Assembly (NCBI GenBank): GCA_964606285.1
Contig: CAZSFP010000001.1
Span: forward strand, 69,376-133,375
Direction: 5' to 3'
Length of the DNA: 64,000 bases
Source of the DNA: an uncultured Candidatus Saccharibacteria bacterium
GTDB lineage: Bacteria > Patescibacteriota > Minisyncoccia > Phycocordibacterales > UBA9973
Of the stretch, positions 3,270 through 53,150 are shown in pieces. The notes below the pieces were generated by a model. It saw only the letters and a program-made list of their open reading frames with translations, was not told where the DNA came from and searched no databases. The stretch's first letter is position 1, and each line of letters begins with the position of its first letter. The position numbers and the translations under genes are program-made.

Positions 3270-3623
3270 ATGAGACATCATAATTCAGTACGAAAATTTG
3301 GACGACCAGCAGATGAGCGACGCGCGCTCCTCCGGTCTTTGGCATTGTCTCTCATTACACATGAGCGAATCACAACAACCGAAGCAAAAGCAAAGGAACT
3401 CCGTCCGTTTGTTGAAAAATTGGTTACTCTCGGTAAGACTGCATCAGTCACATCACACCGATTGCTCGCATCTCGTCTCATGAACCAAAAAGAAGAAGTC
3501 AAAAAGGTCGTGACTGATATCGCACCACGATACACGACTCGCGCAGGCGGCTATACACGCGTTGTAAAGCTCCCACGACGCCTTTCGGACGGCGCTGCGA
3601 TGGCCATTATCGAATTTGTATAA
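3270..3623 (+). CDS. rplQ: 50S ribosomal protein L17
   Basis: 117 aa; MRHHNSVRKFGR....R.ALLRSLA.SLI.HERI.TT..KAKELR. Confidence 0.9.
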   Translation: MRHHNSVRKFGRPADERRALLRSLALSLITHERITTTEAKAKELRPFVEKLVTLGKTASVTSHRLLASRLMNQKEEVKKVVTDIAPRYTTRAGGYTRVVKLPRRLSDGAAMAIIEFV

Positions 3624-3627
3624 TTAT

Positions 3628-3972
3628 ATGAACTACACTATAGACGCAACAGAAAAGAAAATCGGACGAATCGCTTCAGAGGCGGCGATGATTTTGACTG
3701 GCAAAAACAGTCCGACATTTGAGAAAAACAAAGTCTCAGGAAACAAGGTAACGATCATCAACGCATCAAAAGTTTCTATCGATCCGCGAAAACTTCTTTC
3801 TGTCGAATTTGAACGATATTCAGGATACCCAGGCGGTTTCAAGTCTGAAACTCTTGGAAAGACGATCGAGAAAAAAGGCTACGGAGAAGTGTTCGTTCAT
3901 GCGGTCTACAACATGATTCCTGCAAACAAACTCCGATCTATTATCATGAAAAATCTCACCGTAACTGAATAA
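3628..3972 (+). CDS. rplM: 50S ribosomal protein L13
   Basis: L13-like (ASK.LGR.AS..A..L.GK..P.F.....G..V.IINA.K). Start chosen at the ATG that does not overlap rplQ; the track ORF begins at 3616. Confidence 0.8.
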   Translation: MNYTIDATEKKIGRIASEAAMILTGKNSPTFEKNKVSGNKVTIINASKVSIDPRKLLSVEFERYSGYPGGFKSETLGKTIEKKGYGEVFVHAVYNMIPANKLRSIIMKNLTVTE

Positions 3973-3979
3973 TTTTATT

Positions 3980-4393
3980 ATGGAAGCAACAAAAACAACA
4001 GCAAAAAGATATCGTGAAGCAGTCGGTCGTAGAAAGACTTCTACCGCACGTGTTCGCCTCACACCAGCCGCAAAGACATCATTTGTCATCAATGGCCTCG
4101 ATGGTCTCGCATATGTCCGTACAAGCGACCTTTTCAGTATCGTCAACGAACCATTTGTGAAAGGGAAGATTGCTGATACGTATGAAGTCACTGTCGTCGT
4201 TTCTGGTGGCGGTAATCACTCTCAGGTAGAAGCAATCCGACATGGTATCTCTCGTATTCTCTCAACAGATGATGAAGCAACTCGCACATCTCTCAAGAAA
4301 CTCGGATTCCTCAAACGAGATCCTCGTATGAAAGAACGTCGAAAATTCGGTCTCAAGAAAGCTCGTAAGGCGCCAAAGTGGTCAAAACGTTAG
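3980..4393 (+). CDS. rpsI: 30S ribosomal protein S9
   Basis: 137 aa; S9 C-terminal signature GGG.SGQA.AIRHGISRAL ... KKARKAPKWSKR. Confidence 0.9.
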   Translation: MEATKTTAKRYREAVGRRKTSTARVRLTPAAKTSFVINGLDGLAYVRTSDLFSIVNEPFVKGKIADTYEVTVVVSGGGNHSQVEAIRHGISRILSTDDEATRTSLKKLGFLKRDPRMKERRKFGLKKARKAPKWSKR

Positions 4394-4466
4394 TCTCAAA
4401 AAATCTCTCCTTCTGGAGAGATTTTTGTTTTTATGCTAGTATGAACATTGTAAAAAATATAATCCT

Positions 4467-5048
4467 ATGCAAGACGAAGAAGATAAAAAAATAGATATTG
4501 GTGAAGAATTGTCTGACGACGTTTCTTTTATTGAAGAAGATGGCGAAGGTGCCGAACTTTCATCTGCTGCCAAAATAAAGAAACTCCGTGAAGAATTGAA
4601 GACCGCGAACAAAGAACGTCTCGAGTATCTGACTGGTTGGCAGCGTGCCCAGGCTGATTATGTAAATCTCAAAAAAGAATCTGGCGAGAGTCTCATTCGT
4701 GGCAAAGAGATTGGCAGGGAACAACTCCTCGATTCATTACTCCCCGCACTCGATAGTTTCGATATGGCGATCGGCAACAAGGAATCATGGGAGAAAGTTG
4801 ATGCGAACTGGCGCAATGGCATCGAATACATCTATTCTCGACTTCTTACTGCACTTACAGAGAACAATGTCACCGTGATCGACAGTGTCGGTGCTCCATT
4901 TGATCCAAATCTCCATGAAGCGATCGAAAATATTCCAACTGACGACACTGGACGTGATCATACAATCGAATCAATCATCCAGAAAGGATACAAGATGGGT
5001 GATCGGATTCTCCGCCCTGCACGAGTGAAAGTATATACTCTAAAATAA
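4467..5048 (+). CDS. grpE: nucleotide exchange factor GrpE
   Basis: 193 aa; acidic N-terminus, coiled coil, then GrpE core (RAQADYVNLKKE....G.E.LL...LP.LDSF..A......V.G..FDPN.HEA). Confidence 0.85.
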   Translation: MQDEEDKKIDIGEELSDDVSFIEEDGEGAELSSAAKIKKLREELKTANKERLEYLTGWQRAQADYVNLKKESGESLIRGKEIGREQLLDSLLPALDSFDMAIGNKESWEKVDANWRNGIEYIYSRLLTALTENNVTVIDSVGAPFDPNLHEAIENIPTDDTGRDHTIESIIQKGYKMGDRILRPARVKVYTLK

Positions 5049-5052
5049 TAAC

Positions 5053-5086
5053 AAAATCCCTTCAATTGAAGGGATTTTGTTATTTT
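5053..5086 (+). terminator. rho-independent terminator after grpE
   Basis: AAAATCCCTTCAATTGAAGGGATTTT hairpin followed by a T-run. Confidence 0.8.
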
Positions 5087-5113
5087 GACAAACTATCTAT
5101 AAAAGTGTATTGT
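5085..5113 (+). promoter_or_regulatory. sigma70-like promoter, copy 1 of a duplicated promoter
   Basis: TTGACA-17 nt-TATTGT. A 41-nt block, TTGACAAACTATCTATAAAAGTGTATTGTGTGCGGGAAATA, is identical at 5910-5950. Confidence 0.6.
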
Positions 5114-5145
5114 GTGCGGGAAATACATCTTTAAAACTCTGGGCT

Positions 5146-5859
5146 ATGAAAATTAAAATATTTCTTATTGATATGTTAACTGGATTGTTTTTACTTATTC
5201 AGTTATATCCTCCATTATTTTCTTTTGTTCCTTCAGAAAAAATTCCCATGATAAGCACAGGTCTCATCATGATTACCGGATTTGTTATTCTCTTTTTGCA
5301 GGTGCCATATGGTCAATTTTTAGAAGAATGGCATGAAAAAAAGATAGATACGCAGCAGTACGCTCTTCGTATCTGTAGTTTATTCATACTGAGAAAAGAG
5401 AAATATTTTCTGATTGATATTGCACCTGCATATTTTGAAGAATCTGAGATTTATAGTCTGACCCACATGCTCTATAGAATGAAAGGATTCTCGCATCGTT
5501 TGACAGTGAGGATGCAGATGGTAAATATCCGAAGATTTCAAAACAACAAACAAAAATTCACTGTTTTAGCAAATGATATAAGTTTGCAATTTCCAACCAA
5601 TATTATCGCTGATTTAAAGAGTTTTTGTATTATGTATGGTCTTCATGGGGATTCTTTGACTCATCTTGTGACGGAATACACAAAGCTTTTGCAGGAAAAA
5701 CTTGGCCAAGAAAAAGCCGAAGTGTTTCTTGTTGAATTGGTGCGATTGTTGGGAGAGGATCAGACGTTTAAAAAAGATGAAGATAAGGTTCGTACAGAAA
5801 TTATAAAACGCCTTAATATTCATATTGATTTGATCAAAAAATCTATGGTTACTGCATAA
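5146..5859 (+). CDS. hypothetical membrane protein, paralog A of a tandem pair
   Basis: Starts MKIKIFLID. Two N-terminal TM helices plus a roughly 170-aa soluble domain. Shares blocks such as KEKYFLIDIA and LNIHIDLIK with the next gene. The track ORF begins at an in-frame TTG at 5110 inside the promoter (MCAGN read-through). Confidence 0.65.
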   Translation: MKIKIFLIDMLTGLFLLIQLYPPLFSFVPSEKIPMISTGLIMITGFVILFLQVPYGQFLEEWHEKKIDTQQYALRICSLFILRKEKYFLIDIAPAYFEESEIYSLTHMLYRMKGFSHRLTVRMQMVNIRRFQNNKQKFTVLANDISLQFPTNIIADLKSFCIMYGLHGDSLTHLVTEYTKLLQEKLGQEKAEVFLVELVRLLGEDQTFKKDEDKVRTEIIKRLNIHIDLIKKSMVTA

Positions 5860-8959: not shown

Positions 8960-9733
8960 ATGACATTTCTCATCAAACAGGAAAAATTTGAAGGACCGTT
9001 CGATCTCCTCCTCTCGCTTGTTGAAGCGCGCAAATTTTTTGTGAACGATATTTCACTTGCGGCTGTCACCGAAGATTATATTCGGTTCGTCTCATCTATG
9101 GATGAGCAGTCCATAGATGATCTCACATCATTCATCAGTGTTGCAGCAACACTTATTCTCATCAAATCAAAATCACTGCTCCCAACTCTTGAACTTTCAA
9201 AAGATGAATCATCTGCTGTCGATGATCTCGAGCGACGGTTGCTTCTCTATGGGCAGATTGAAAAACAAGCGAAACTGTTGGCACCGCTTGTTTCATATCG
9301 AAAACTTTTTTTTCATGCACCAGAAAAAATGCAGCCAGTTTTTTCTCCACATGAAAGTATTACAAAGGAAAGTCTTCTGGGTGCGCTCCAAGATGTATTC
9401 CGTGCAATGCCGGAAGTAGTTGAGAAAAAACCAGAATTGACGTTGAAGAAAATCATGACGATCGAAGAGATGATTGATTCGATCGCTGTTCGTGTACAGA
9501 AAGGATTACAGATTTCATTTCGTGACATGTCCGGCTATAAAAAAGGCGCAGTGACCAAAGAAGAAAAGATCACAGTTATCGTTTCATTTTTGGCATTGCT
9601 CGAACTTGTCCGTCAAGGTCTCGTCTCTGCGGCACAAGGAAATCATTTTGATGACATCACGATCGATCAACCAGAAGAAATCCCTGTTATTCCCCAAGCT
9701 GATACTGAACAAAACGCAGATACTATCGTATAA
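8960..9733 (+). CDS. scpA: segregation and condensation protein A
   Basis: N-terminus FEGPFDLLLSLVEARKFFVNDISLAAVTEDYIRFV is the ScpA signature; followed by scpB. Confidence 0.85.
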   Translation: MTFLIKQEKFEGPFDLLLSLVEARKFFVNDISLAAVTEDYIRFVSSMDEQSIDDLTSFISVAATLILIKSKSLLPTLELSKDESSAVDDLERRLLLYGQIEKQAKLLAPLVSYRKLFFHAPEKMQPVFSPHESITKESLLGALQDVFRAMPEVVEKKPELTLKKIMTIEEMIDSIAVRVQKGLQISFRDMSGYKKGAVTKEEKITVIVSFLALLELVRQGLVSAAQGNHFDDITIDQPEEIPVIPQADTEQNADTIV

Positions 9734-13623: not shown

Positions 13624-15087
13624 ATGTCACAAAAAGTAGTCACTCGTTTTGCCCCTAGTCCGACAGGTTTTATGCATATCGGCGGCGTTCGCACTGCATT
13701 GTATGCGTGGCTTTTTGCTCGCAAACACAACGGTACATTTATACTTCGTATCGAAGACACTGATAAAAAACGTGAAGTCGAAGGTTCGATCGATCATATT
13801 ATTGCATCTTTAAAATGGCTCGGTATCTCATGGGACGAGGGTCCTGATATCGGCGGATCACATGCACCGTATTTACAATCACAAAGACTTGATTCATATA
13901 AAAAATACGCACAAATTCTCATCGACAAAGGATTTGCCTATGCTGATCCGTATACAGAAGCAGAGTTAGAGAAATTTCGTGCAGATGCAGAAGCATCGAA
14001 GCAACCGTTTCTTTATCGAAATTATCGACCAGAAAATCCTCCAGTATGGGATGGTTCTCAACCGCTTCGATTCAAAGTAAAAGATATAAAAACATATGAA
14101 TGGAATGATCTTGTCCGTGGTACATTGTCTGCCGGACCAGAAGCACTTGATGATATCATTTTGATAAAAAGTGACGGATATCCAACCTACAATTTTGCCC
14201 ACATCATAGATGATCTAGAAATGGGTGTGACACATATCATGCGTGCAGATGAATTTATCTCTTCAACGCCAAAGTTTCTCTGTATTTATGAAGCGCTCGG
14301 CATACAACGTCCGGAAATAGCGACATTGCCACCAATCATGGGACCAGAAGGAAAAAAGAAATTGAGTAAACGAGATGGAGCCAAAGATATTCTTGATTAT
14401 AAAAACGAAGGTTATCTTCCAGAAGCAATCATGAACTTTTTGATATTTATTGGATGGAATCCTGGTGGAGAACGTGAACTTTATACTGCAGAAGAATTGA
14501 TGCAAGAATTTGATATTTCAAAAATTCATAGCAGTGGTGGAAAATTCAACGAAGACAAACTCAACTGGTTCAACCGTGAATATATCAAAAAGCTCGATCA
14601 GAGTGGGTTTTGGACTAATGGAGAGAAATGGGTGCCGCAATGGGTCTATGACATAGATACAAAATATGAAATGCTTGCAAAAATAGAATTCTTGATCCGT
14701 GATCGTATTGAAAAATTCTCTGACATCAAGACTTTGTTTGAATCAGGTGAATTCGATTATTTCTTCAAAGAACCGGTTATCGATGATATTCAAAATATGA
14801 TTTGGAAATCTCTTCGTGATACTGCGGACGGAAAAGAAAAAACAAAAACGTATCTCACTCAGGCAAAAAATCTCCTTGAAACCATTTCTGAATCTGATTG
14901 GTCAGAAACAAAAGTAAAAGAATTGATCTGGCCACTGACAGAAACATACGGTCGTGGCGAACTGCTTTGGCCGATCCGGTATTCACTTTCTGGTCGTGAT
15001 AAGTCTCCTGATCCATTCGTTCTTGCCGGGATTCTCGGTAAAGATACTACAGTCAAACGTCTCACTACCGCAATATCACTTCTATAA
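13624..15087 (+). CDS. gltX: glutamyl-tRNA synthetase
   Basis: 487 aa; RFAPSPTGFMHIGGVRTALY (HIGH) and KLSKR (KMSKS) motifs. Confidence 0.9.
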   Translation: MSQKVVTRFAPSPTGFMHIGGVRTALYAWLFARKHNGTFILRIEDTDKKREVEGSIDHIIASLKWLGISWDEGPDIGGSHAPYLQSQRLDSYKKYAQILIDKGFAYADPYTEAELEKFRADAEASKQPFLYRNYRPENPPVWDGSQPLRFKVKDIKTYEWNDLVRGTLSAGPEALDDIILIKSDGYPTYNFAHIIDDLEMGVTHIMRADEFISSTPKFLCIYEALGIQRPEIATLPPIMGPEGKKKLSKRDGAKDILDYKNEGYLPEAIMNFLIFIGWNPGGERELYTAEELMQEFDISKIHSSGGKFNEDKLNWFNREYIKKLDQSGFWTNGEKWVPQWVYDIDTKYEMLAKIEFLIRDRIEKFSDIKTLFESGEFDYFFKEPVIDDIQNMIWKSLRDTADGKEKTKTYLTQAKNLLETISESDWSETKVKELIWPLTETYGRGELLWPIRYSLSGRDKSPDPFVLAGILGKDTTVKRLTTAISLL

Positions 15088-15091
15088 AATA

Positions 15092-15127
15092 AAAACACCC
15101 CTTACTCATGATAAGAGGTGTTTTATT
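15092..15127 (+). terminator. rho-independent terminator after gltX
   Basis: ACACCCCTT-ACTCATGAT-AAGAGGTGT hairpin plus TTTTATT. Confidence 0.7.
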
Positions 15128-15185
15128 GTGCTGGATACTTTGAGTCCAATATGTAGGTGTATCCCGTGGACAATATATTGATGGT

Positions 15186-15250
15186 GGGCGGATCCGCTGT
15201 TTGCCTTCCTTGTGAAGGGAACAGTTGAGGATCCGCCCGGAACTTTTTTT
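15186..15250 (+). terminator. long imperfect GC-rich hairpin plus U7; second terminator or 3' end of a small RNA
   Basis: Stem GGGCGGATCC...GGATCCGCCC with nested CUGUU/AACAG and CCUUC/GAAGG helices (about 20 bp) followed by TTTTTTT. Strikingly GC-rich for this genome. Confidence 0.4.
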
Positions 15251-15598
15251 GATATTACATGAATAGATTCTGTGGGGGGTCAGAGAAAACGGAAAAAGAG
15301 TTATATATTCCTCGGGTGGAAAGTATGGATTTATTTTGAAGTCCATATCTATGTGAGGCTTTTTTTGTTCAGATTTTTGTGGTGCTTCTGCAACTACTTC
15401 AAATTCAATATTTTCTGTACAATTACTGGAATTGAGACGGTGACTTAGTGATGAACCAAGCATACCTATTCCTACTACTATGAATCCTTTCATATAAGAT
15501 GATGTTTGGAACAATTTCCAAGTATCCTACTACAGGTGTTTTAAAAAGGCAAGATGTATCCAAATTTTTTATAAAATCTTCTATGGTAGAATAGACGT

Positions 15599-16045
15599 AT
15601 GTCAATACTTAAAATAGGAACTGTTGCACCAGATTTTTCATTACTTGATCACGATGGAAAGGTGACGTCACTATCTCAATTTCATGGATCATATGTCTTA
15701 CTCTATTTTTATCCGAAAGATGACACACCAGGTTGTACCAAAGAAGCATGCATGATTCGTGATGTCTACAATGACTTTCAAAAGAAGGGAATTGTGGTCC
15801 TTGGAGTTTCAAAAGATTCACCGGTATCACATGCGAGGTTCCGTGAGAAATATGAATTGCCGTTCACGTTGCTTTCTGATCCCGACAAAAAAGTTATCAA
15901 AGCATACGGTGCACTTGCGGGTATCTTAACTCGCCGTATTTCATATCTCATCGATCCAAAAGGAATAATCGTCCGTGTCTATCCAAAAGTTGATCCAGCG
16001 AGTCATGCAGGAGAAATTTTGAAAGATATAGAATCTTTGAATTAA
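15599..16045 (+). CDS. bcp: thiol peroxidase (peroxiredoxin, Bcp type)
   Basis: 148 aa; peroxidatic-cysteine motif FYPKDDTPGCT. Confidence 0.85.
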   Translation: MSILKIGTVAPDFSLLDHDGKVTSLSQFHGSYVLLYFYPKDDTPGCTKEACMIRDVYNDFQKKGIVVLGVSKDSPVSHARFREKYELPFTLLSDPDKKVIKAYGALAGILTRRISYLIDPKGIIVRVYPKVDPASHAGEILKDIESLN

Positions 16046-16138
16046 GAGTTGTATCCTAGTTTTTGATTTTGAATTTTTATACTAGTACCTATAACCTTGA
16101 ACCTTTTATCTGTTCTCTAGTTATCCACATCTATTTCC

Positions 16139-16167
16139 TTGCATGTGAACGATCGTTCACATATACT
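16139..16167 (+). promoter_or_regulatory. lexA promoter with an embedded SOS (Cheo) box
   Basis: TTGCAT-17 nt-TATACT. The spacer, GTGAACGATCGTTCACA, contains the perfect palindrome TGTGAACGATCGTTCACA (16144-16161), i.e. GAAC-N4-GTTC. lexA lies directly downstream. Confidence 0.8.
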
Positions 16168-16213
16168 ATATGTAGTCGAAAAGATAATAATTAATCAAAT
16201 AACAAGACTATAT

Positions 16214-16408
16214 ATGACACGAGAACAATATGTGAAAATAATAGAAAAAGAACTTCACCAGATCAACAAGAAGATCGATCTCAAAATTCTTCGCGGTCAG
16301 GAATATTCTAGAGAAGCACGAGACCACAAGCTCCTCTTGAAGAAAATCCGACAAAACACACGACGAAGTCTTTTTGGTAAATTATTCTTCTTTCTCCCAC
16401 AGTTTTAA
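16214..16408 (+). CDS. small basic helical protein (64 aa) upstream of and coupled to lexA
   Basis: ATG 40 nt downstream of the SOS-box promoter; stop is 3 nt before the lexA ATG. The track ORF 16139..16408 begins at a TTG inside the promoter. Coding status is uncertain. Confidence 0.35.
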   Translation: MTREQYVKIIEKELHQINKKIDLKILRGQEYSREARDHKLLLKKIRQNTRRSLFGKLFFFLPQF

Positions 16409-16411
16409 TTT

Positions 16412-16978
16412 ATGGATACTAATTATAAAGAAAAACTTATATCGTTCTACCGATCCAAAAAGCGCATGCCCACATATTCTGAAATGATGGGGCTTTTTGG
16501 TTTCAAATCAAAAAACGCAGTCTTCCGTCTCGTTGAGAAATTCATCGATGCTGGGTTAGTTGCCAAAGATCATTTGGGTAGACTGATTCCGAATGCATCG
16601 CTCGGCAATATCCCACTTCTTGGTTCTGTGACAGCAGGCTTTCCGGCAACCGTTGAAGAAGAAATGAAAGACACCCTCGATCTCAATGATTATCTCCTGA
16701 CCAAAACAGGGACGACGTATATGCTTGAAGTCGATGGGAACTCTATGATTGATGCGCATATTGCTGATGGTGATATGGTGCTTGCTGAACGAACAAATGA
16801 TGCCAAGGATGGAGAGATTGTTATCGCAGAGATCGACGGGGAATTCACGATGAAATATTTGAAGAAAAAAGGGGACGCAGTCTGGCTTGAGCCAGCAAAC
16901 AAAGCATTCAAGCCGATGTACCCGAAACATTCCTTCAGTATCGTTGCCCGTATCAAGGCAGTTATCAGGAAGTATTAA
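16412..16978 (+). CDS. lexA: LexA repressor (S24 peptidase)
   Basis: 188 aa; N-terminal winged HTH; cleavage site and S24 domain (LLGSVTAG.P, VDGNSM, GD.V....T.DAKDGEIV.A, W.K). Confidence 0.9.
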   Translation: MDTNYKEKLISFYRSKKRMPTYSEMMGLFGFKSKNAVFRLVEKFIDAGLVAKDHLGRLIPNASLGNIPLLGSVTAGFPATVEEEMKDTLDLNDYLLTKTGTTYMLEVDGNSMIDAHIADGDMVLAERTNDAKDGEIVIAEIDGEFTMKYLKKKGDAVWLEPANKAFKPMYPKHSFSIVARIKAVIRKY

Positions 16979-16981
16979 ATA

Positions 16982-17554
16982 ATGATTACTATATCTAAAT
17001 ATACAATACCCAATTTTGAAGATATAAGGCATAACTATAATTTTAAAGATCGTATTGATCTTAAATATGCAAGTTATATTGCGTGTTTATATTATGAATT
17101 TGCTTATTATCGAATGTTGGGATTTAGTGATATTCGTAGTAGATTTTTTAAAGAAAATTTACCTGATAATAATCTAATAAATAATTATTTAAATCAATCT
17201 TGGTCCGAAGCTTATTCAGTTTATGCATTATTGCGAACCTCTATTGAAGCAGTAAGAAAAATAAATAAAGGATTACTAAACGAAAATCTTATTAATTCTT
17301 ATTATAAAACTAAGATAAAAAATATTATTAACATTACTAACGACATTATTAAGCATCCAATGTTTAATGATGCTAGTGGTCAATCTCAGGCATATCGTCC
17401 AATAAGTTTGGATATAGGGGGAAATATAGATATAGAAAGATGGATAGATAAAACTACACCTTCTTCGACTTTAAGTATTTCTCCAATGGAAGATTTCGAA
17501 GCAGTAAAAAATTATTTAGAACACATAGCAGAATTATTAAAATCAATAAAATAA
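16982..17554 (+). CDS. hypothetical protein in the lexA operon with anomalously AT-rich composition
   Basis: 190 aa, starts 4 nt after lexA. GC is visibly lower than the flanking genes. No recognisable domain. Confidence 0.5.
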   Translation: MITISKYTIPNFEDIRHNYNFKDRIDLKYASYIACLYYEFAYYRMLGFSDIRSRFFKENLPDNNLINNYLNQSWSEAYSVYALLRTSIEAVRKINKGLLNENLINSYYKTKIKNIINITNDIIKHPMFNDASGQSQAYRPISLDIGGNIDIERWIDKTTPSSTLSISPMEDFEAVKNYLEHIAELLKSIK

Positions 17555-17599
17555 TAAAGAAGATACAATTTGTTAATTTTTCTGCTATGATACGTTTCT

Positions 17600-18169
17600 A
17601 TGCAGATAACCTCAGCAACGTTTGTAAAAGGAATAACTTCAGATGATGCGATACTGACCGACGGGATACCTCAGGTCGCGTTTATTGGCCGTTCCAATGT
17701 CGGCAAATCAAGTATTTTGAATGCACTCACTTGGCAAAAGGATTTGGCGCGCACAAGTTCTTTTCCTGGCAGAACCCAGGAGATCAACTTCTTTTTGATC
17801 AACAAGTCTTTCTATCTCGTAGATCTTCCAGGATACGGTTATGCGCAGATGTCCGGTGGTGGGCGAGATAAAATACGAACTATTATTTATACGTATCTTT
17901 TTCATTCTCTTGCGACTCAGAAAAAAGTGGTTCTGATTATCGATGCACTCGTTGGTCCAACAAAAGAGGATTTGGAAGTCCTCCATGAACTCGAAGAACA
18001 CAAAAAGGATATTGTGGTTATCGCAAACAAGATAGACAAAGTACCAAAAGCGAGCTACATCAATCATATGAAGAAAATCCAGACTCAAATCGGCCGACAC
18101 AAGATGATCGTGTATTCTTCCAAGAAAAAAACAGGTGATACTGATGTTCTCCGAACAATTTTGAAATAA
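17600..18169 (+). CDS. engB: ribosome biogenesis GTP-binding protein YihA/YsxC
   Basis: 189 aa; G1 [10 protein letters not shown]3 DLPGYG, NKIDK motif. Confidence 0.85.
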
Positions 18170-18264
18170 CCATACAATATATACTTTGTATAGGTAACAA
18201 TTTTCTCTATGTTTCGTTTATACTATATGTACCGCTATACGGTATATTAATTACTATAAAATTT

Positions 18265-18981
18265 ATGAATAAAAAAATATACATGTCTCTTAGTTCTCTG
18301 GCGATTGGTGCAGTATGTGGACTTATGATTGTTGCAGTGCCTGCGCATGCATTGCTGCCAGATATATCTCTCGATACAAGTACCCAAGTCAATACCCAAT
18401 ATGATTCCAATAATGGAAACAATGCAAATGCCAATGCTTCAACTAATGCACGGGTAAACAGTCAAAAAAATAATAAGAATGATAATGACTCACTGATCAT
18501 CAATAGAAGCCGAACCAATATGAATAGCAATGCAAATGCTGCTGTTTCTTTGGAAAATATCAAAGATAGAAACGACCTGTCTTTGTATGTGAATTCTCTT
18601 GTCAAAGCAGATAAGGATTTCAAAGGAATTCGTTCAGACGATAAAGAAGTTATCGTGACGTATAAACAATACGCAGAATTGTTCGGATTTATTCCAGTAC
18701 GTTTTAACGCACATGCACAAATAGAAAATGATGGCATAGTGCATGTTCGATATCCATGGTATCGTTTCTTGCTTTCTGGAGCTAGTAAGAACGCCTTAGA
18801 AGCTCGGTTACAGACCAAAGCTCATGGTATCATCGGTGACTCTACAAATGAATCTACTACACAATTTTCTGCTCAGACACAAGCTCATCTGATCAATGAA
18901 TTTCGTAAAGAAATGAAAGAAAATTATGAAGCTGATATCAAAGTAAACGCAAAAGTAGATAATTCTACTAATACGAGATAA
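18265..18981 (+). CDS. secreted hypothetical protein
   Basis: Signal peptide MNKKIYMSLSSLAIGAVCGLMIVAVPAHA; N/S/A-rich low-complexity region; folded C-terminal domain. Confidence 0.55.
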   Translation: MNKKIYMSLSSLAIGAVCGLMIVAVPAHALLPDISLDTSTQVNTQYDSNNGNNANANASTNARVNSQKNNKNDNDSLIINRSRTNMNSNANAAVSLENIKDRNDLSLYVNSLVKADKDFKGIRSDDKEVIVTYKQYAELFGFIPVRFNAHAQIENDGIVHVRYPWYRFLLSGASKNALEARLQTKAHGIIGDSTNESTTQFSAQTQAHLINEFRKEMKENYEADIKVNAKVDNSTNTR

Positions 18982-18988
18982 TTAAAAT

Positions 18989-19025
18989 AAAAACACTCCA
19001 TATGACATGGTGTGTTTTTATTTTC
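18989..19025 (+). terminator. rho-independent terminator
   Basis: AAAACACTCCATATGACATGGTGTGTTTTTATTTT. Confidence 0.75.
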
Positions 19026-19087
19026 CACAGTACTGTATTTTTCTGATGTGCTACAATAATTCTATTACAATAATCACACACATTTGT

Positions 19088-19153
19088 ATGGCAAAAGGAA
19101 ATAATCGTCAACAAAAAAACAAAAAGAAGCCAAAGAAAGAAAAGGCGAAGTAA
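19088..19153 (+). CDS. 21-aa highly basic peptide (MAKGNNRQQKNKKKPKKEKAK) in its own small transcription unit
   Basis: Extended -10 (TGCTACAAT) about 35 nt upstream; strong terminator immediately downstream. It could equally be a non-coding small RNA. Confidence 0.3.
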   Translation: MAKGNNRQQKNKKKPKKEKAK

Positions 19154-19154
19154 T

Positions 19155-19187
19155 AAAAACTCCACAGATAAAGTCTGTGGAGTTTTT
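19155..19187 (+). terminator. rho-independent terminator
   Basis: CTCCACAG-ATAAAGT-CTGTGGAG plus TTTTTG. Confidence 0.75.
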
Positions 19188-19202
19188 GAATGAATGAATT
19201 TT

Positions 19203-19248
19203 ACTCTCCTCCTTTTCGAGGAGGAGTACCCGAAGGGGGAGGTGGTGA
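19203..19248 (+). repeat. solo copy of a GC-rich hairpin repeat (family also at 52762-52799 and 53151-53199)
   Basis: ACTCTCCTCCTTTTCGAGGAGGAGTACCCGAAGGGGGAGGTGGTGA is about 96% identical to the reverse complement of the copy at 53151-53199. Followed by GGTGGTGA...TTACCACC, and a perfect palindrome CTTCCTTGATCAAGGAAG at 19297-19314. Confidence 0.7.
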
Positions 19249-19365
19249 TCTTGTATTCTATAATTACCACCCCGTCTGGCGAGTATGCCAGCCACTCTTC
19301 CTTGATCAAGGAAGGGAATTGGGAAAAATGCAAGATCTGTTTTTGTATGGTACACATATATACAC

Positions 19366-20610
19366 ATGAGAGAACAGTATGAACAATTTGATGTTATTGT
19401 CATCGGTGGCGGCGCATCAGGGATGATGGCCGCGGGTATTGCTGCATCACGAGGAAAGAAAGTCCTTATTCTTGATAAAAATAAACGTCTCGGTCAGAAA
19501 CTCGCGATCACTGGTGGTGGTCGTTGTAATATCACAAATGACGAAGATGATCTTCGATTGTTTCTGAAACACTATGGCAAAGCCGAACAATTTCTTTATT
19601 CGCCGTTTGATCAGTTTAACAAAGACAAAACGTTCTCATTTTTTGAATCTCTCAATATGCCGCTCGTTGTCCAAGCTCGTAAACGTGCATTTCCACAAAC
19701 AGAACGCGCTGAAGACGTTCGAACACTCATGGAGAATTTTATCCGGATGCATGGTGTGACCGTCAGAACGAATACATCGGTAACTCGCATAGAAACTGTA
19801 GACGGGAAAATTTCCGGTGTCATTGCTGGAGGAAAAATGTATACCGCAGAAAGTTATATTCTCGCGACTGGTGGTGTCTCACATCCCGAAACCGGTTCGA
19901 CAGGTGATGGTTTCGGTTGGATGAAAAAACTGGGACATACCGTAGCGGCGCCGACACCGTCCATCGTCCCACTCGCAGTCAAAGATACGTGGATCAAATC
20001 GCTTGCCGGGGTGTCACTGTCATTTATGAAAATTACATTTTATGTAAACGGTGTAAAGCAATTCAATAAAAAAGGTAAAATTCTTTTTACACACTTCGGA
20101 CTGTCTGGTCCACTTATTTTGAACTCTGCAACAAAAGTAGCAGATCTTTTGCATGATGGAGAAGTCACGGCTCAGATCGATGCATATCCCGATACGGATC
20201 TCGGTGTACTCGAAGACAAAATCATAAAAATCTTTGATGCGAACAAAAACAAAATGTTCAAAAATGTGCTTCCAGAATGTGTTCCTGAGGGTATGGCACA
20301 GGCACTTTTGAAATTGCTTCCAATTGACGAACAAACAAAAATTCACAGCATTACAAAACCAATGCGAAAAGAATTGGTCCGTATCCTGAAGGCACTGCCA
20401 GTCACAATCACGGGACTCATGGGATTTGACCGTGCGGTTATCGCCGATGGTGGTGTGGACCTGCGAGAAATAGATACAAAAACGATGCGGTCACTCCGTT
20501 GCCCAAATCTTTTTATTACCGGAGATCTGCTGCATGTGAATCGTCCATCTGGCGGATTTTCTCTCCAACTCTGTTGGACGACGGGATATGTTGCCGGAAT
20601 GAACACGTAA
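19366..20610 (+). CDS. FAD-dependent oxidoreductase, HI0933/BaiN-like family
   Basis: 414 aa; N-terminal Rossmann fold DVIVIGGGASGMMAAGIAA; GGGRCN motif typical of HI0933-like flavoproteins. Confidence 0.7.
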   Translation: MREQYEQFDVIVIGGGASGMMAAGIAASRGKKVLILDKNKRLGQKLAITGGGRCNITNDEDDLRLFLKHYGKAEQFLYSPFDQFNKDKTFSFFESLNMPLVVQARKRAFPQTERAEDVRTLMENFIRMHGVTVRTNTSVTRIETVDGKISGVIAGGKMYTAESYILATGGVSHPETGSTGDGFGWMKKLGHTVAAPTPSIVPLAVKDTWIKSLAGVSLSFMKITFYVNGVKQFNKKGKILFTHFGLSGPLILNSATKVADLLHDGEVTAQIDAYPDTDLGVLEDKIIKIFDANKNKMFKNVLPECVPEGMAQALLKLLPIDEQTKIHSITKPMRKELVRILKALPVTITGLMGFDRAVIADGGVDLREIDTKTMRSLRCPNLFITGDLLHVNRPSGGFSLQLCWTTGYVAGMNT

Positions 20611-24642: not shown

Positions 24643-26007
24643 ATGGCATTCTCATCCCGTTTCTCATCGTCTCGGCCTTCAACTGGCGGACGACCATCTT
24701 CTCGTTCTCAAAGTTCAGAACCACGGTCTTCATCATCTCCTCGAAGAGATGCAAAAGCTCCGTCATCATTTCGTGCGCCATCGTCATATCGCGGTGGTAG
24801 TTCTTCATCATCTCGTTACGGTGGTTATTCATCACGACCAGCTCGCTCAGGCGGATTTGGTGGTGGCAATCGATCACGTGGACGTGGCCGATTTGAACAA
24901 AAGATCGACACATCTCGATTTATCTTTACACCGACAAAAGCACAGGAAGCAAAGGTATATCAAAGCGAACATACGTTTACTGATTTCAAGTTTTCTCCGA
25001 TCCTTACACAGAATCTTGTTGACCGCGGCTATGCGATTCCAACAGAAATCCAAGACAAAACGATCACACACACACTCGCAGGGCGTGATATCGTTGGTCT
25101 TGCAAATACTGGTTCTGGGAAAACAGCAGCATTTCTTCTTCCGTTGATCGAAAAAGTTATCAAGAACGACAAGGAACGAATTCTTATCCTTGCACCAACA
25201 CGCGAACTCGCAATGCAGATCAATACAGAGCTTCGACTGTTTACAAAAGGTCTCCGTATATTCTCTAGTGTCTGTGTTGGTGGCATGCCGATCTATCATC
25301 AGATCCAAACACTTCGTCAGCTCAACCACTTTGTTATCGGTACTCCGGGACGTCTCAAAGACCTCTCAAAGCGCCGATCAATCGATTTTAGTACATTTAC
25401 TAATGTCGTGGTTGATGAATTCGATCACATGCTCGACATGGGATTCATCGATGACATCACACTTATTCTTGGTGGTTTGCCAAAGACGCGCCAATCATTT
25501 TTCTTTTCTGCAACGATGCCACCGCGCATCCAGTCTGCAGTTGAAAAATTCTTGACTGATCCTGTTACGATCAATGTCGGATCAGGTGTTACGACAAAAA
25601 ATGTTACTCAAGACGTCATTCGTGTTCGTCACAAAGATGACAAGATCGAAGAGCTCCACAAGATTCTTGGCCACGAAGATACATCAAAGACGATTATTTT
25701 CGTTGAAACAAAGCGGGAAGTTGAATCGCTCGCGCAAGACCTCAAACGCGCAGGATTCCGTGCAGATTCGATCCATGGCGACAAACGTCAGCGTGAACGA
25801 CAACGCACACTCAATCAATTTCGAGATGATGATATCACCGTCCTCGTGGCAACTGATGTCGCGGCTCGCGGTATCGATGTCAAAGACATCAGTCACGTCA
25901 TCAACTATACGGTCCCACAGACCTATGATGATTATGTGCACCGCATCGGCCGTACCGGTCGCGGAAATAGCACAGGGAAGGCGTTGACGTTTGTTATCGA
26001 ACGATAA
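24643..26007 (+). CDS. DEAD-box ATP-dependent RNA helicase with an N-terminal Ser/Arg/Gly-rich extension
   Basis: Q-motif, Walker A AxTGSGKT, motif II DEFD variant, SAT and HRIGRTGR motifs. The first roughly 85 aa are low-complexity (SSRPSTGGRPSSRSQSS...GGFGGGNRSRGRGR). Confidence 0.85.
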   Translation: MAFSSRFSSSRPSTGGRPSSRSQSSEPRSSSSPRRDAKAPSSFRAPSSYRGGSSSSSRYGGYSSRPARSGGFGGGNRSRGRGRFEQKIDTSRFIFTPTKAQEAKVYQSEHTFTDFKFSPILTQNLVDRGYAIPTEIQDKTITHTLAGRDIVGLANTGSGKTAAFLLPLIEKVIKNDKERILILAPTRELAMQINTELRLFTKGLRIFSSVCVGGMPIYHQIQTLRQLNHFVIGTPGRLKDLSKRRSIDFSTFTNVVVDEFDHMLDMGFIDDITLILGGLPKTRQSFFFSATMPPRIQSAVEKFLTDPVTINVGSGVTTKNVTQDVIRVRHKDDKIEELHKILGHEDTSKTIIFVETKREVESLAQDLKRAGFRADSIHGDKRQRERQRTLNQFRDDDITVLVATDVAARGIDVKDISHVINYTVPQTYDDYVHRIGRTGRGNSTGKALTFVIER

Positions 26008-50083: not shown

Positions 50084-50506
50084 CTAATCTTTCAAAAGAA
50101 GTTTAGCGTTTAATTCTTTCCCTGCCTTTAAAAATTCAATAGTAATATTTTTTGAGGAGGTTTTTAATTCTTCAAGTAATTTCTTTATACTTTCTTGTTT
50201 TTCTGGTACATATTTTTTCATACTAAAATGACGTATTTCTTCTGAAACGATATTTTCTACCCCTTGAAGTGAAGTCCATTTTTTCCCATTCCAAACTTTT
50301 ATTGTAATTTCGCCTGATATTGGAGTCAGAGTAGCATCGTGATAATAAACATCTTGAAGAACACTAATATTTATATCACCCATTTTAAAGTATCGTGGAT
50401 AATATTTTTTAGTTTCATATCCAAAGAAAATTCTAGATGATTTAAAATCAATTACTTCTTGATTTACAACTTCTTGTTTTATGTTTGGTTGTTTGGGGGT
50501 TTCCAT
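50084..50506 (-). CDS. hypothetical protein co-oriented downstream of gap
   Basis: 140 aa, AT-rich, 10 nt after the previous gene. Confidence 0.45.
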   Translation of the reverse strand: METPKQPNIKQEVVNQEVIDFKSSRIFFGYETKKYYPRYFKMGDINISVLQDVYYHDATLTPISGEITIKVWNGKKWTSLQGVENIVSEEIRHFSMKKYVPEKQESIKKLLEELKTSSKNITIEFLKAGKELNAKLLLKD

Positions 50507-50515
50507 ATTAAAATA

Positions 50516-50890
50516 TTATATCTCTGATAAAACCACGTTATATTTATTACCAACAGCATTTTGAATAATTTCTTGTGTTTCTTGCCATGAAATTTTAAGT
50601 GGTCCTAAATTAAGTGATTTTGAAGATCGGTCAATTATTATTTCATTTCCAAACAAATTCAAAACTGCACCACCCAGAGATTCAATTTTTTCTCCGCATT
50701 CATTTTCGAGATCAGCAAACATTTCTGGATGTTTTTTTTCGGGCATAGTAACAAAATGGAATTCATTTTTAGATTTGGCTATAACAAATTTTTGAGCACC
50801 GCCAAATTCTAAAATATCTTCTCCAAATGTAACAAGTGATTTACCAACTTGTATTTCAATATTCTTTTTCTCTTGCGATACTGTTTCCAT
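50516..50890 (-). CDS. hypothetical protein immediately downstream of gap
   Basis: 124 aa; starts 2 nt after the gap stop. Confidence 0.45.
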   Translation of the reverse strand: METVSQEKKNIEIQVGKSLVTFGEDILEFGGAQKFVIAKSKNEFHFVTMPEKKHPEMFADLENECGEKIESLGGAVLNLFGNEIIIDRSSKSLNLGPLKISWQETQEIIQNAVGNKYNVVLSEI

Positions 50891-52799: not shown

Positions 52800-53150
52800 T
52801 TAAAATTCACTTTGTATTTTTGATATAACACCATTCATATTTGTATTTATCTCAGTATTTGTAAATCGTAAAACTTTTATACCAAGTGAATTAAAATATT
52901 GCGTTCGTACAATATCATATTCTTGATCTTCTTCTGTATAATGCTGCGATCCATCTATTTCAATCACTAATTTTTTCTGAGTACAATAAAAATCTGCAAT
53001 GTATGTACCAATACTATGCTGTCTTCGAAATTTAAAACCGAGTTTTGAATTTTTTAATTGGTTCCATAATAAAATCTCTTGAGGGGTTGCATTATTTCTT
53101 AATGTTTTTCGATAAGAATGTAGTTGTGAAATATTATTAACTGTTTTCAT
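52800..53150 (-). CDS. DUF559 endonuclease-domain protein (Vsr-like restriction-endonuclease fold)
   Basis: 116 aa; LR...T..E..LW..L.....G.KFRRQ...G.YI.DF.C...KLVIEIDG..H.......D..R......LG..VLRF.N.E. is the DUF559 signature. Confidence 0.75.
   Translation of the reverse strand: MKTVNNISQLHSYRKTLRNNATPQEILLWNQLKNSKLGFKFRRQHSIGTYIADFYCTQKKLVIEIDGSQHYTEEDQEYDIVRTQYFNSLGIKVLRFTNTEINTNMNGVISKIQSEF

Follow-up and report, generated by a model that had tools for sequence, protein, structure and literature searches.

The locus raises two questions: whether lexA and the small open reading frame (sORF) in front of it form a unit controlled by LexA, and what place a gene for a 190-aa orphan protein (p190), lying directly behind them, has in that unit. 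Both were addressed in the window, that is, the whole 64-kb stretch of DNA that was analyzed, and by comparison with 80 orthologous lexA loci from Ca. Nomurabacteria/Paceibacteria. The reading that we favor, with a probability of about 0.72, is that of an autoregulated sORF-lexA operon, in an uncultivated bacterium of the Ca. Nomurabacteria/Paceibacteria type (CPR), together with an acquired p190 "conflict" gene that rides on host transcription. The positions of the features are collected in Table 1.

Table 1. Features of the sORF-lexA-p190 locus (positions in the window).
Feature	Position	Strand	Remarks
-35 hexamer TTGCAT	16139..16144	+	read in the sequence
LexA operator, perfect 18-bp palindrome TGTGAACGATCGTTCACA, core GAAC-N4-GTTC	16144..16161	strand-neutral	fills the -35/-10 spacer
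-10 hexamer TATACT	16162..16167	+	read in the sequence
sORF, 64 aa, basic, pI 10.4	16214..16408	+	stop 3 nt before lexA
lexA, 188 aa, N-terminal DNA-binding domain and S24 autopeptidase	16412..16978	+	TIGR00498, Peptidase_S24
AGGAAG, Shine-Dalgarno-like, for p190	16967..16972	+	within the 3' end of lexA; the ATG follows after 9 nt
p190, 190-aa orphan protein	16982..17554	+	3-nt gap after lexA; ATG starts at the 4th base past the stop
594-bp strain-specific insertion (190-aa ORF and 21 nt)	16982..17575	+	blastn breakpoints vs L097/L098
engB/YsxC-type GTPase gene, ancestral downstream neighbor of lexA	17600..18169	+	MMR_HSR1 2e-20; 45 nt after p190

The promoter and the LexA operator

The hexamers TTGCAT and TATACT are separated by a spacer of 17 nt (16145-16161), which is filled by the palindrome. 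This arrangement had been described in an earlier note on this DNA, together with its assignment as a LexA operator of the Firmicute/CPR type, and both were upheld by the comparison: 76 of the 80 orthologous loci keep a promoter of the form TTGnnn-17/18-TAnAnT with the box in its spacer, and GTGAAC-N4-GTTCAC lies inside the spacer at 75 of the 80. The -10 hexamer of the 76 orthologous promoters was TATACT in 68 cases and TATAAT in seven, and the -35 hexamer was TTGACA, TTGACT or TTGCAT, the first two prevailing in the relatives. The word "textbook", which the note had used for the promoter, does not hold, because TTGCAT agrees with TTGACA at only 3/6 positions.

GAAC-N4-GTTC occurs once in the 64-kb window, at the operator itself. 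As a bare 12-mer it is not rare (1.15 occurrences expected by chance); the 18-mer operator is, since chance would give 0.03 occurrences even when as many as 3 mismatches are allowed. When a scoring matrix derived from 78 orthologous operators was used, the site scored 32.8 bits, whereas shuffled sequences reached no more than 9.1, and it was the sole high-scoring site within the 64 kb. Candidate boxes at 9040 (inside scpA) and at 24963 (inside a DEAD-box helicase gene) were rejected, both being intragenic with scores at or near the shuffle range. No match was obtained in an Rfam scan of positions 15000 to 19500. The palindrome overlaps the SOS promoter and is conserved in orthologues, as in a Cheo-box or Gram-positive-type operator, and it is presumably bound by LexA. 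A LexA dimer placed on GTGAAC-N4-GTTCAC would extend across the whole -35/-10 spacer and block RNA polymerase.

The conserved sORF-lexA unit

Judged by its sequence, the lexA product is a bona fide autocleavable LexA, in agreement with the earlier naming of this gene as lexA. It matched TIGR00498 at full length, with an N-terminal winged-helix DNA-binding domain and a C-terminal S24 peptidase domain, at 128.2 bits (cutoff 110.95), and Peptidase_S24 (PF00717) at 9e-30; the Pfam LexA_DNA_bind model gave no match at E<=1. Its residues 19-185 were aligned over residues 25-196 of E. coli LexA, which placed the predicted cleavage site Ala75-Gly76 (VTA75-G76FP) on A84-G85 and the predicted dyad Ser111 (GNS111M)/Lys148 (TMK148YL) on S119 and K156. 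The repression would be lifted when, in response to damaged DNA, RecA stimulates LexA to cleave itself at Ala75-Gly76 by means of the Ser111/Lys148 dyad. No paralogues of the operon genes were found within the 64-kb window.

The 64-codon basic ORF that the earlier note had placed 3 nt before lexA is a real gene and a partner of lexA conserved across the clade. A homologue was detected by tblastn directly upstream of lexA at 77 of the 80 loci, with a length of 62-75 aa; its gap to lexA was between -8 and +72 nt at most loci and about 220 nt at two of them. The substitutions per codon position 1/2/3 were 0.31/0.21/0.57, and 17 residues of the alignment were invariant. Since the box-in-spacer promoter (76/80) and an sORF with a coding signature (77/80) are both kept, sORF and lexA form a conserved LexA-autoregulated unit. 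In its transcript the sORF would come first, followed by lexA translationally coupled to it. The AF2 model of the sORF product (pLDDT 75) is a helical hairpin with helices at 3-27 and 32-57, and its tail is aromatic/hydrophobic; no transmembrane segment was found. Searches in Pfam, NCBIfam and the PDB gave no match, and Foldseek with the model returned generic helical hairpins only. Literature searches on the sORF and on CPR LexA yielded only citations, in PMC8565304 and PMC7739468, of a 2017 paper on Patescibacteria (Sanchez-Osuna, Barbe and Erill, Environ Microbiol 19:3465).

p190 as a strain-specific insertion

The 190-aa gene starts, as reported earlier, 4 nt past the lexA stop, and its marked AT-richness was confirmed: with a GC of 0.253 and a GC3 of 0.136, it ranked lowest among the 79 ORFs with 100 aa or more, whose mean GC is 0.396 (z = -2.65). 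It was absent from all 80 orthologous lexA loci. In the syntenic relatives L097 and L098 (~87% identity) the site is empty and reads lexA, 38 nt, engB; homology to them by blastn stops at 16981 and resumes at 17576, the 594-bp insertion standing in place of about 12 nt of their lexA-engB spacer. The order lexA-engB was also found in L015, L062 and L076. In strain L099 (97.6% identity) the similarity is lost after 16979, and other cargo stands there, a convergent 225-aa gene with a terminator. The gene was therefore acquired horizontally, as the earlier note had suggested, and is not a conserved neighbor of lexA with normal composition.

Around the insertion, the search for a target-site duplication or conserved flanks yielded only an AAATAAT repeat, which is uninformative in AT-rich DNA. 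The nucleotide homology between p190 and other members of its family is confined to the ORF, from ATG to stop; because it starts exactly at the ATG, no promoter traveled with the gene. Low-GC cargo directly behind lexA and on the same strand was also seen in other lineages, where it consists of methyltransferases, a PIN-like protein and unknowns. The low-GC 213-aa gene at this place in L065 was unrelated to the p190 family by hhalign. A second low-GC single-gene insertion, DUF559-like, was observed in the window at 52800-53150.

The p190 protein and its family

The AF2 model of p190 (pLDDT 87) is a soluble helical bundle with a three-stranded sheet. Searches in Pfam, NCBIfam, PADLOC, PHROG and the PDB gave no match, which bears out the absence of a recognizable domain noted before (Pfam, NCBIfam and PADLOC). 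Foldseek with the model against the PDB and BFVD returned nothing at E<=0.001; the top PDB matches were RNase III and dsRBD at TM<0.2, and the C-terminal alpha-beta-beta-beta-alpha topology of the model looks only loosely dsRBD-like. The best profile match to a PDB sequence, Hermes transposase at E=0.11, was judged to be noise. When p190 and 28 family members were compared with Pfam, NCBIfam, PADLOC and PHROGs, only scattered single-member matches at noise level were obtained (HepT-like 0.028, DUF5677 0.011, PADLOC HEase 0.006), and a wider profile search with p190 gave no new or annotated relatives.

The family is rare: 10 clusters were found in one search, and 31 clusters at 50% identity among 1.84 billion proteins. 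All members have about 190 aa, and Y37, R85, H125 and P126 are invariant across the family. The polar residues Y37, Y81, R85, N120 and H125 may cluster at one end of the bundle, a placement drawn from helix register only. The GC of family genes was lower than that of the flanks in the four loci compared, and in another five it was lower than the GC of the locus. No relatives were found on viral contigs (IMG/VR), nor any consistent PHROG match or BFVD fold match.

The contexts of the family are varied. Its genes follow, on the same strand and after a small gap, lexA, pheT, trmD, a Trypsin_2 gene, a restriction-enzyme-like gene and others. Among the neighbors are type I restriction-modification genes and a serine recombinase, a restriction helicase-nuclease along with a protein that bears the motif RNNFAHG, an EcoRI-type methylase together with GmrSD/HNH, and HigB-like/SocA. 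Of about ten independent contexts used for guilt by association, about four were clearly of the defense type. Since the members are rare, sporadic, AT-biased single ORFs close behind unrelated genes, often in restriction-modification, toxin-antitoxin or recombinase surroundings, p190 was assigned to the horizontally acquired accessory genes.

The searches gave no match to a known defense family, a nuclease fold or a HEPN motif. Neither the defense families of PADLOC-DB v2 nor the Abi families matched p190, and the 28 family members gave scattered single-member matches to PADLOC-DB v2 with E values of at least 8e-4. A HEPN ribonuclease (Rx4-6H) was considered and rejected: at the position of the motif the family has N-D-x-x-K-H, preceded by R in 1/28 members (P0040, RNNFPAH), the HepT-like match at E=0.028 came from a single member of the 28, and no HEPN structure appeared among the Foldseek matches.

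Expression and function of p190

Capture of p190 under SOS control, by co-transcription with lexA, had been proposed earlier, and we infer the same because of the 3-nt gap, the AGGAAG upstream of the ATG and the lack of promoter- or terminator-like sites in between. The consensus scan of the plus strand detected no promoter-like site from 16242 to 17158, and the terminator scan detected none on this strand from the LexA-controlled promoter through to engB. The gene would thus use the transcription of the host operon, and its expression here would depend on the SOS response. SOS linkage is not a property of the family, since relatives also lie behind constitutive housekeeping genes. The limits of the transcription unit are uncertain, because engB follows downstream with no intervening terminator; engB is likely an essential gene. 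Alternatively, the insertion could be neutral with regard to regulation, the position behind lexA being a hypervariable hotspot and p190 being expressed constitutively or from a weak promoter of its own. A weak promoter within the lexA coding region is possible, as the consensus scan may miss one, and AT-rich DNA yields many promoter-like hexamers. Placement behind lexA may likewise be incidental, the site being hypervariable: the same spot is empty in L097 and L098 and holds an unrelated convergent gene with a terminator in L099, and family members follow pheT, trmD and other non-SOS genes. However, p190 follows lexA on the same strand after a 3-nt gap, with no terminator between them. The 300 bp in front of it are lexA coding sequence with a GC of 0.43-0.45 and no plus-strand promoter-like match, and the start of family homology at the ATG argues against a traveling promoter. 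A purely neutral insertion thus seems unlikely to us.

Regarding function, the earlier note had named a SulA/YneA-like division inhibitor, an abortive-infection protein and an accessory of error-prone repair as candidates. A classical SOS effector, that is, a SulA/YneA/SidA-like division inhibitor or a translesion-synthesis accessory, would suit a gene placed directly after lexA under a LexA-controlled promoter, and the SOS division inhibitors of different phyla are well known for their lack of homology to one another. Its distribution, however, largely refutes this reading, which we consider most improbable: p190 is absent from all 80 loci and from strains that are 87-98% identical, and its homologues lie in restriction-modification/toxin-antitoxin islands and behind pheT, trmD and restriction genes, not in SOS contexts. 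The protein itself has no transmembrane segment (maximum Kyte-Doolittle 0.65) and no LysM, SulA (PF03846), ImuA or UmuD signal; for the translesion accessories UmuD, ImuA and ImuB there was no Pfam/NCBIfam match, and no polymerase gene adjoins p190 in the window. A free-standing selfish gene, such as one for a homing-endonuclease-like nuclease, which spreads by inserting its ORF alone and is of no benefit to the host, would account for the ORF-only insertion between conserved genes, the low GC and the sporadic distribution. A LAGLIDADG-like ORF adjoins the family member in L091, the DUF559-like insertion at 52800-53150 is of a similar kind, and a nuclease site might be made up of the R, H, N and Y residues that are invariant. 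Nevertheless, no LAGLIDADG, GIY-YIG, HNH or PD-(D/E)xK match was obtained by sequence or fold, the beta strands carry no conserved acidic residues and the insertion sites share no target gene or sequence, which makes this reading decidedly unlikely. Since family members are apparently tolerated behind the constitutive pheT and trmD, p190 is probably not toxic alone, and it could belong to the immunity or antitoxin-like proteins, as an orphan that neutralizes an incoming toxin or phage factor instead of acting as an effector. Its small size, solubility, sporadic occurrence and AT-richness would agree, as would the RHS-type toxin gene 3.6 kb away in L090 and the adjoining toxin-antitoxin genes in L003; but most contexts have no adjacent cognate toxin, no known immunity family was matched, and we hold this to be quite improbable. 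Our best guess is that the acquired p190 is a conflict gene with a role most likely in defense or counter-defense, exerted through the conserved polar site (Y37, Y81, R85, N120, H125). An abortive-infection or other defense function is possible, and of the functions named in the earlier note it fits the genomic contexts best.

Comparison with known systems

LexA autoregulation through GAAC-N4-GTTC is known biology, CPR bacteria included, and the core of the finding is in this sense ordinary. The SOS regulon of Patescibacteria/CPR reportedly has a Gram-positive-type LexA box; the present locus shares with it the GAAC-N4-GTTC operator and lexA autoregulation. The clade-wide sORF-lexA unit (77/80) and the strain-specific p190 insertion are shown by the sequences studied here. 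With LexA (DinR) of B. subtilis and its Cheo box CGAAC-N4-GTTCG, the locus has in common the repressor family (TIGR00498), the palindromic core and an operator over the lexA promoter. Here, however, the operator has the longer form GTGAACG-NN-CGTTCAC and is fixed exactly in the -35/-10 spacer, and lexA, unlike that of B. subtilis, comes second in the operon, after the conserved sORF. The division-inhibitor operon yneA-yneB-ynzC, divergent from lexA in B. subtilis, has no homologue at the present locus.

The E. coli lexA-dinF operon resembles the locus in that a LexA-repressed promoter serves lexA and a downstream gene, which for p190 would hold if it is co-transcribed; dinF is a conserved, vertically inherited gene for a MATE transporter, whereas p190 is a strain-specific foreign ORF. 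The integron integrase gene intI, the colicin operons, tisB and symE are likewise accessory or conflict genes under LexA control that are fired by DNA damage. These carry LexA boxes themselves, whereas p190 lacks an operator and, inserted into the operon, would make use of the promoter of lexA.

The sORF is similar to gp7 of phage GIL01, DinI, SidA and YneA in its small size and its linkage to an SOS regulator, a likeness of size and context only that serves as a lead, no sequence or fold relationship having been detected. We know of no SOS division inhibitor in CPR bacteria. The sORF product might be a core SOS component of these reduced genomes, present in essentially all Nomurabacteria/Paceibacteria, either as a modulator of LexA/RecA or as a division inhibitor. 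The lexA 3' end might in turn be a landing pad for SOS-gated defense cargo, receiving promoterless genes on the same strand time and again (p190 here; methyltransferases, a PIN-like protein and other low-GC unknowns elsewhere), and p190 would then be a new defense protein that acts alone and has a new fold. This combined proposal is tentative, and we would not expect it to hold.

For the biology of these bacteria, the sORF represents an uncharacterized small basic protein tied to lexA across a CPR clade (77/80 loci), and in genomes of about 1 Mb a conserved SOS-controlled gene likely matters. The empty, occupied and alternatively occupied sites among close strains document a clear-cut natural case of a foreign gene entering a stress-regulated operon as little more than its ORF. 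Taken with the methyltransferase and PIN-like genes of sister lineages, this suggests that the 3' ends of CPR operons may serve as expression platforms for accessory and defense genes. The p190 family, with a fold that is new by Foldseek, its rarity and its link to defense islands, is a candidate for defense screens.

The lexA locus and its operator

Reading of positions 15800-18000 together with the ORF list recovered every element of the SOS operon that the earlier note had described: promoter, palindrome, a 64-aa small gene (sORF), lexA and a 190-aa gene behind it (p190). The promoter, which had been called textbook, does have the TTGCAT-17-TATACT arrangement; since TTGCAT agrees with TTGACA at only three of six positions, that label was slightly generous, and the site was not called by the consensus promoter scanner.

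Features of the lexA locus, in window coordinates
Feature	Position	Strand	Source or remark
Bcp peroxiredoxin gene	upstream of the sORF-lexA region		profile match
-35 hexamer TTGCAT	16139-16144	+	sequence reading
Perfect palindrome TGTGAACGATCGTTCACA, 18 bp, filling the spacer	16144-16161		sequence reading
Promoter spacer, 17 nt	16145-16161	+	sequence reading
-10 hexamer TATACT	16162-16167	+	sequence reading
sORF, 64 codons	16214-16408	+	ORF list
lexA	16412-16978	+	ORF list; 3-nt gap after sORF
p190, 190 codons	16982-17554	+	ORF list; 3-nt gap after lexA
engB-type GTPase gene	start 17600, 45 nt past p190	+	profile match

The GAAC-N4-GTTC 12-mer, with one occurrence observed and 1.15 expected in the 64-kb window, is not statistically remarkable alone. 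The operator 18-mer is (0.03 expected, even with three mismatches allowed). GTDB genomes were scanned with the LexA protein, yielding 80 orthologous loci (64–80% identity), all from MAGs of Ca. Nomurabacteria, Paceibacteria or Patescibacteria. A TTGnnn-17/18-TAnAnT promoter with GAAC-N4-GTTC in its spacer was observed 250–490 nt upstream of lexA in 76 of them, and in 75 of these 76 the palindrome was extended to GTGAAC-N4-GTTCAC. Of the -35 hexamers, 65 were TTGACA or TTGACT and 5 were TTGCAT; the -10 hexamer was TATACT in 68 loci. Two of the four loci with no box upstream of lexA (L017 and L075) end there at a contig edge. The operator and promoter are thus a conserved regulatory module.

A position matrix derived from the orthologous operators gave the window site 32.8 bits, against a maximum of 9.1 in shuffled sequence. 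The runners-up in the window reached 12.9 bits (in scpA) and 8.0 bits (in a DEAD-box helicase gene); since both are low-scoring and intragenic, the spacer palindrome is the sole credible LexA box within the 64 kb. The 12.9-bit site, TGTGAACGATATTTCACT at 9040-9057, lies about 80 nt into the scpA coding region, differs from the operator at three positions and is probably a chance match.

The lexA product scored 128 bits on TIGR00498 (cutoff 111) and matched Peptidase_S24 (9e-30), and its alignment to E. coli LexA spans both domains, with VTA75-G76FP at the cleavage site, the nucleophile in GNS111M and the general base in TMK148YL all conserved. By these sequence features it is a bona fide LexA. 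By established LexA biology, a repressor dimer on a spacer-filling palindrome such as this one would keep RNA polymerase off the lexA promoter. The LexA box and the autoregulation of lexA match, in CPR bacteria, the Gram-positive Cheo-box paradigm. An SOS analysis of Patescibacteria by Sanchez-Osuna et al. in 2017 reportedly agrees with the window locus in both respects, and this core of the locus is known biology.

A conserved small gene upstream of lexA

A homologue of the sORF was detected by tblastn immediately upstream of lexA in 77 of the 80 loci. These homologues have 62–75 aa, an ATG start and a mean net charge of +9, and they end mostly between 8 nt inside lexA and 72 nt before it (about 220 nt in two loci). 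In the first 50 codons, pairwise substitutions were most frequent at the third codon position (0.57, against 0.31 at the first and 0.21 at the second), which is a coding signature, and 17 positions were invariant across 35 database clusters. In the AlphaFold model (pLDDT 75), helices 3-27 and 32-57 form a hairpin; the 12–25 residues that follow make up an aromatic/hydrophobic tail with little conservation. No match was obtained in Pfam, NCBIfam or PDB sequences, nor any specific fold match, and no transmembrane segment was found, the tail being too short for one. The sORF is a real gene and a clade-wide partner of lexA, the most conserved element of the locus without an explanation.

p190 is a strain-specific insertion

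The proposal that p190 was acquired horizontally was borne out by the comparison of loci, as the gene was absent from all 80 orthologous lexA loci. Near relatives of the window organism were reached through the sORF search. Two loci of GCA_054403375.1 (L097 and L098), with about 87% nucleotide identity to the window, are fully syntenic with it (gltX, bcp, sORF, lexA, engB, HI0933-like gene, ABC gene) and carry the empty site, in which 38 nt separate lexA from engB. Homology to them in blastn breaks at 16981 and 17576, so the insert corresponds to 16982-17575: it begins with the ATG of the ORF, extends 21 nt beyond the stop and stands in place of about 12 nt. A third relative (L099) is 97.6% identical to the window as far as 16979 and then differs: at L099:4766-5505, behind lexA, a hairpin terminator (CCTTCAC...GTGAAGG) is accompanied by a low-GC gene for 225 aa in convergent orientation, unrelated to p190 and with no Pfam match. 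The occurrence of empty, p190 and 225-aa-gene versions in close strains indicates that the 3' flank of lexA is hypervariable at strain level. The AT-richness that had been remarked on is pronounced, p190 having the lowest GC (0.253; GC3 0.136) of the 79 window ORFs with 100 aa or more (mean 0.396, sd 0.054; z = -2.65). The structural reading, in which the SOS operon has taken up a foreign gene, has good support.

Other low-GC or variable segments were observed in the window. Between engB and the HI0933-like gene, 852 bp (18170-19021) stand where L097 and L098 have about 4 nt; this segment includes an Asn-rich 238-aa ORF (18265-18981) with an N-terminal signal-peptide-like stretch and only sub-threshold Pfam matches (E>=0.01). 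At 52800-53150, on the minus strand adjoining gatB, a 116-aa ORF with the second lowest GC of the window (0.26) resembles by eye a DUF559/Vsr-like endonuclease (motif ...ADFYC...IEIDG.QH...) and looks like another single-gene low-GC insertion. The adjacent ORFs at 50084-50890 are likewise low in GC, with no named function.

Regarding expression, AGGAAG lies 9 nt ahead of the p190 ATG, inside the end of the lexA coding region. A consensus scan of 16242-17158 returned no plus-strand promoter-like site, and no plus-strand terminator-like site was found from the lexA promoter through to engB. Nucleotide similarity to family members begins right at the ATG; the gene thus brought no promoter along. 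The most economical reading of this arrangement is that p190 would be co-transcribed from the LexA-controlled promoter, and SOS regulation can reasonably be inferred. Since engB follows with no terminator between, it is uncertain where the transcription unit ends.

The position behind lexA in related loci

In 77 related loci, the gene that comes next after lexA was recorded.

Genes found directly behind lexA in related loci
Product	Loci	Arrangement
PIF1-like helicase with HTH_40	23	same strand, mostly 14-40 nt
HU	15	convergent
DNA methyltransferases	5	same strand, 12-36 nt; 3 clearly low-GC
MGMT/ATL DNA-binding-domain protein	4	1-21 nt
engB	3	same strand
Y-family polymerase	2	same strand
PIN-like protein (L082)	1	same strand
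LPD3-like protein (L079)	1	same strand
Low-GC 213-aa protein, no named function (L065)	1	same strand

The PIF1-like helicase, with its C-terminal HTH_40 (L009, L010, L013 and 20 others, at about 3580-5300), is probably a conserved third SOS-operon gene in its subclade. The methyltransferases (L020, L033, L035, L038 and L077, from about 3580) belong to five lineages and to N6_N4_Mtase, Eco57I-like and, by motif, C5 types, the low-GC ones lying clearly under the GC of their loci. The survey shows that genuine repair genes and foreign cargo take this position in different lineages.

The p190 family

This is a very small family: among 5.8 billion proteins it has 10 clusters at 90% identity, and among 1.84 billion it has 31 representatives at 50% identity. 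Members of full length have a single domain and about 185–205 aa, and among the clusters that the annotated search gave, not one had a Pfam domain or a name besides "hypothetical protein". As the earlier note had held, no domain is recognisable: 28 members, compared by profile search with Pfam, PHROGs, PADLOC, NCBIfam and PDB sequences, gave isolated noise-level matches only. No transmembrane segment was found in p190, and no homologue on viral contigs.

The AF2 model is confident (pLDDT 87, pTM 0.83), with helices 10-18, 25-57, 63-98 and 106-123, strands 137-143, 149-154 and 160-166, and a last helix 168-189; Foldseek against PDB and BFVD returned nothing significant. Y37, R85, H125 and P126 are invariant in the family as a whole, and Y81, N120, P168, Y178 and E180 nearly so. 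The antiparallel helix register, read from the secondary-structure map and not from coordinates, would place Y37, Y81/R85 and N120/H125 at one level of the bundle, which suggests a single polar site.

Of the functions put forward, p190 belongs neither with the division inhibitors SulA and YneA nor with translesion-synthesis accessories, which makes the division-inhibitor and error-prone-repair proposals unlikely; it also falls outside the PADLOC-listed defence proteins and the phage families. A HEPN assignment was rejected because the motif N-D-x-x-K-H-P differs from Rx4-6H, RNNFPAH occurring in one distant member only.

The genomic contexts of the family all differ, with no constant partner gene. 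Homologues were located behind trmD, beside UDG, a serine recombinase and a type I restriction-modification system; adjoining a serine recombinase; behind a Trypsin_2 protease gene, beside a HigB-like/SocA_Panacea pair; 10 nt behind pheT (L100); behind a LAGLIDADG-like ORF in a housekeeping region; and in an XRE/membrane-protein islet. At L005 the homologue stands between an upstream restriction helicase-nuclease fragment and a 599-aa protein (L005:1904-3703) with an EMARD_N match and a C-terminal LRNNFAHG, a type of motif typical of HEPN nucleases; the region is likely a defence island. A distant homologue of the P0023 group (L102:2096-6507, GCA_022709715.1; also L103 and L095) follows, on one strand, genes for an EcoRI-type methylase, a GmrSD_N-HNH protein and a 183-aa protein with no named function, and precedes 61-aa and 216-aa ORFs. 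Its reading frame holds a TGA, read as sense, so the host uses a non-standard code, for example 4 or 25. The L100 contig also has, between pheS and pheT, a 142-aa ORF (L100:3234-3662) with no Pfam match, possibly a further small insertion within a housekeeping operon.

Across these contexts a gene on the same strand mostly precedes the homologue, at a distance of -4 to +43 nt, and in every locus examined the GC of the homologue was below that of the surroundings. Three roles were considered. An orphan immunity protein and a purely selfish element were both placed behind a role in defence or counter-defence, which is favoured, at roughly 35–40% of the total, because restriction or toxin-antitoxin genes neighbour the family in about four of ten independent contexts. 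That homologues sit behind constitutive genes speaks against toxicity of the protein alone.

The conserved sORF is modestly novel, as is p190 at lexA, a clean example of cargo insertion. The contexts of the p190 family bear the signature of a mobile accessory gene of variable or defence regions, and the window copy is one instance of the class of cargo behind lexA.
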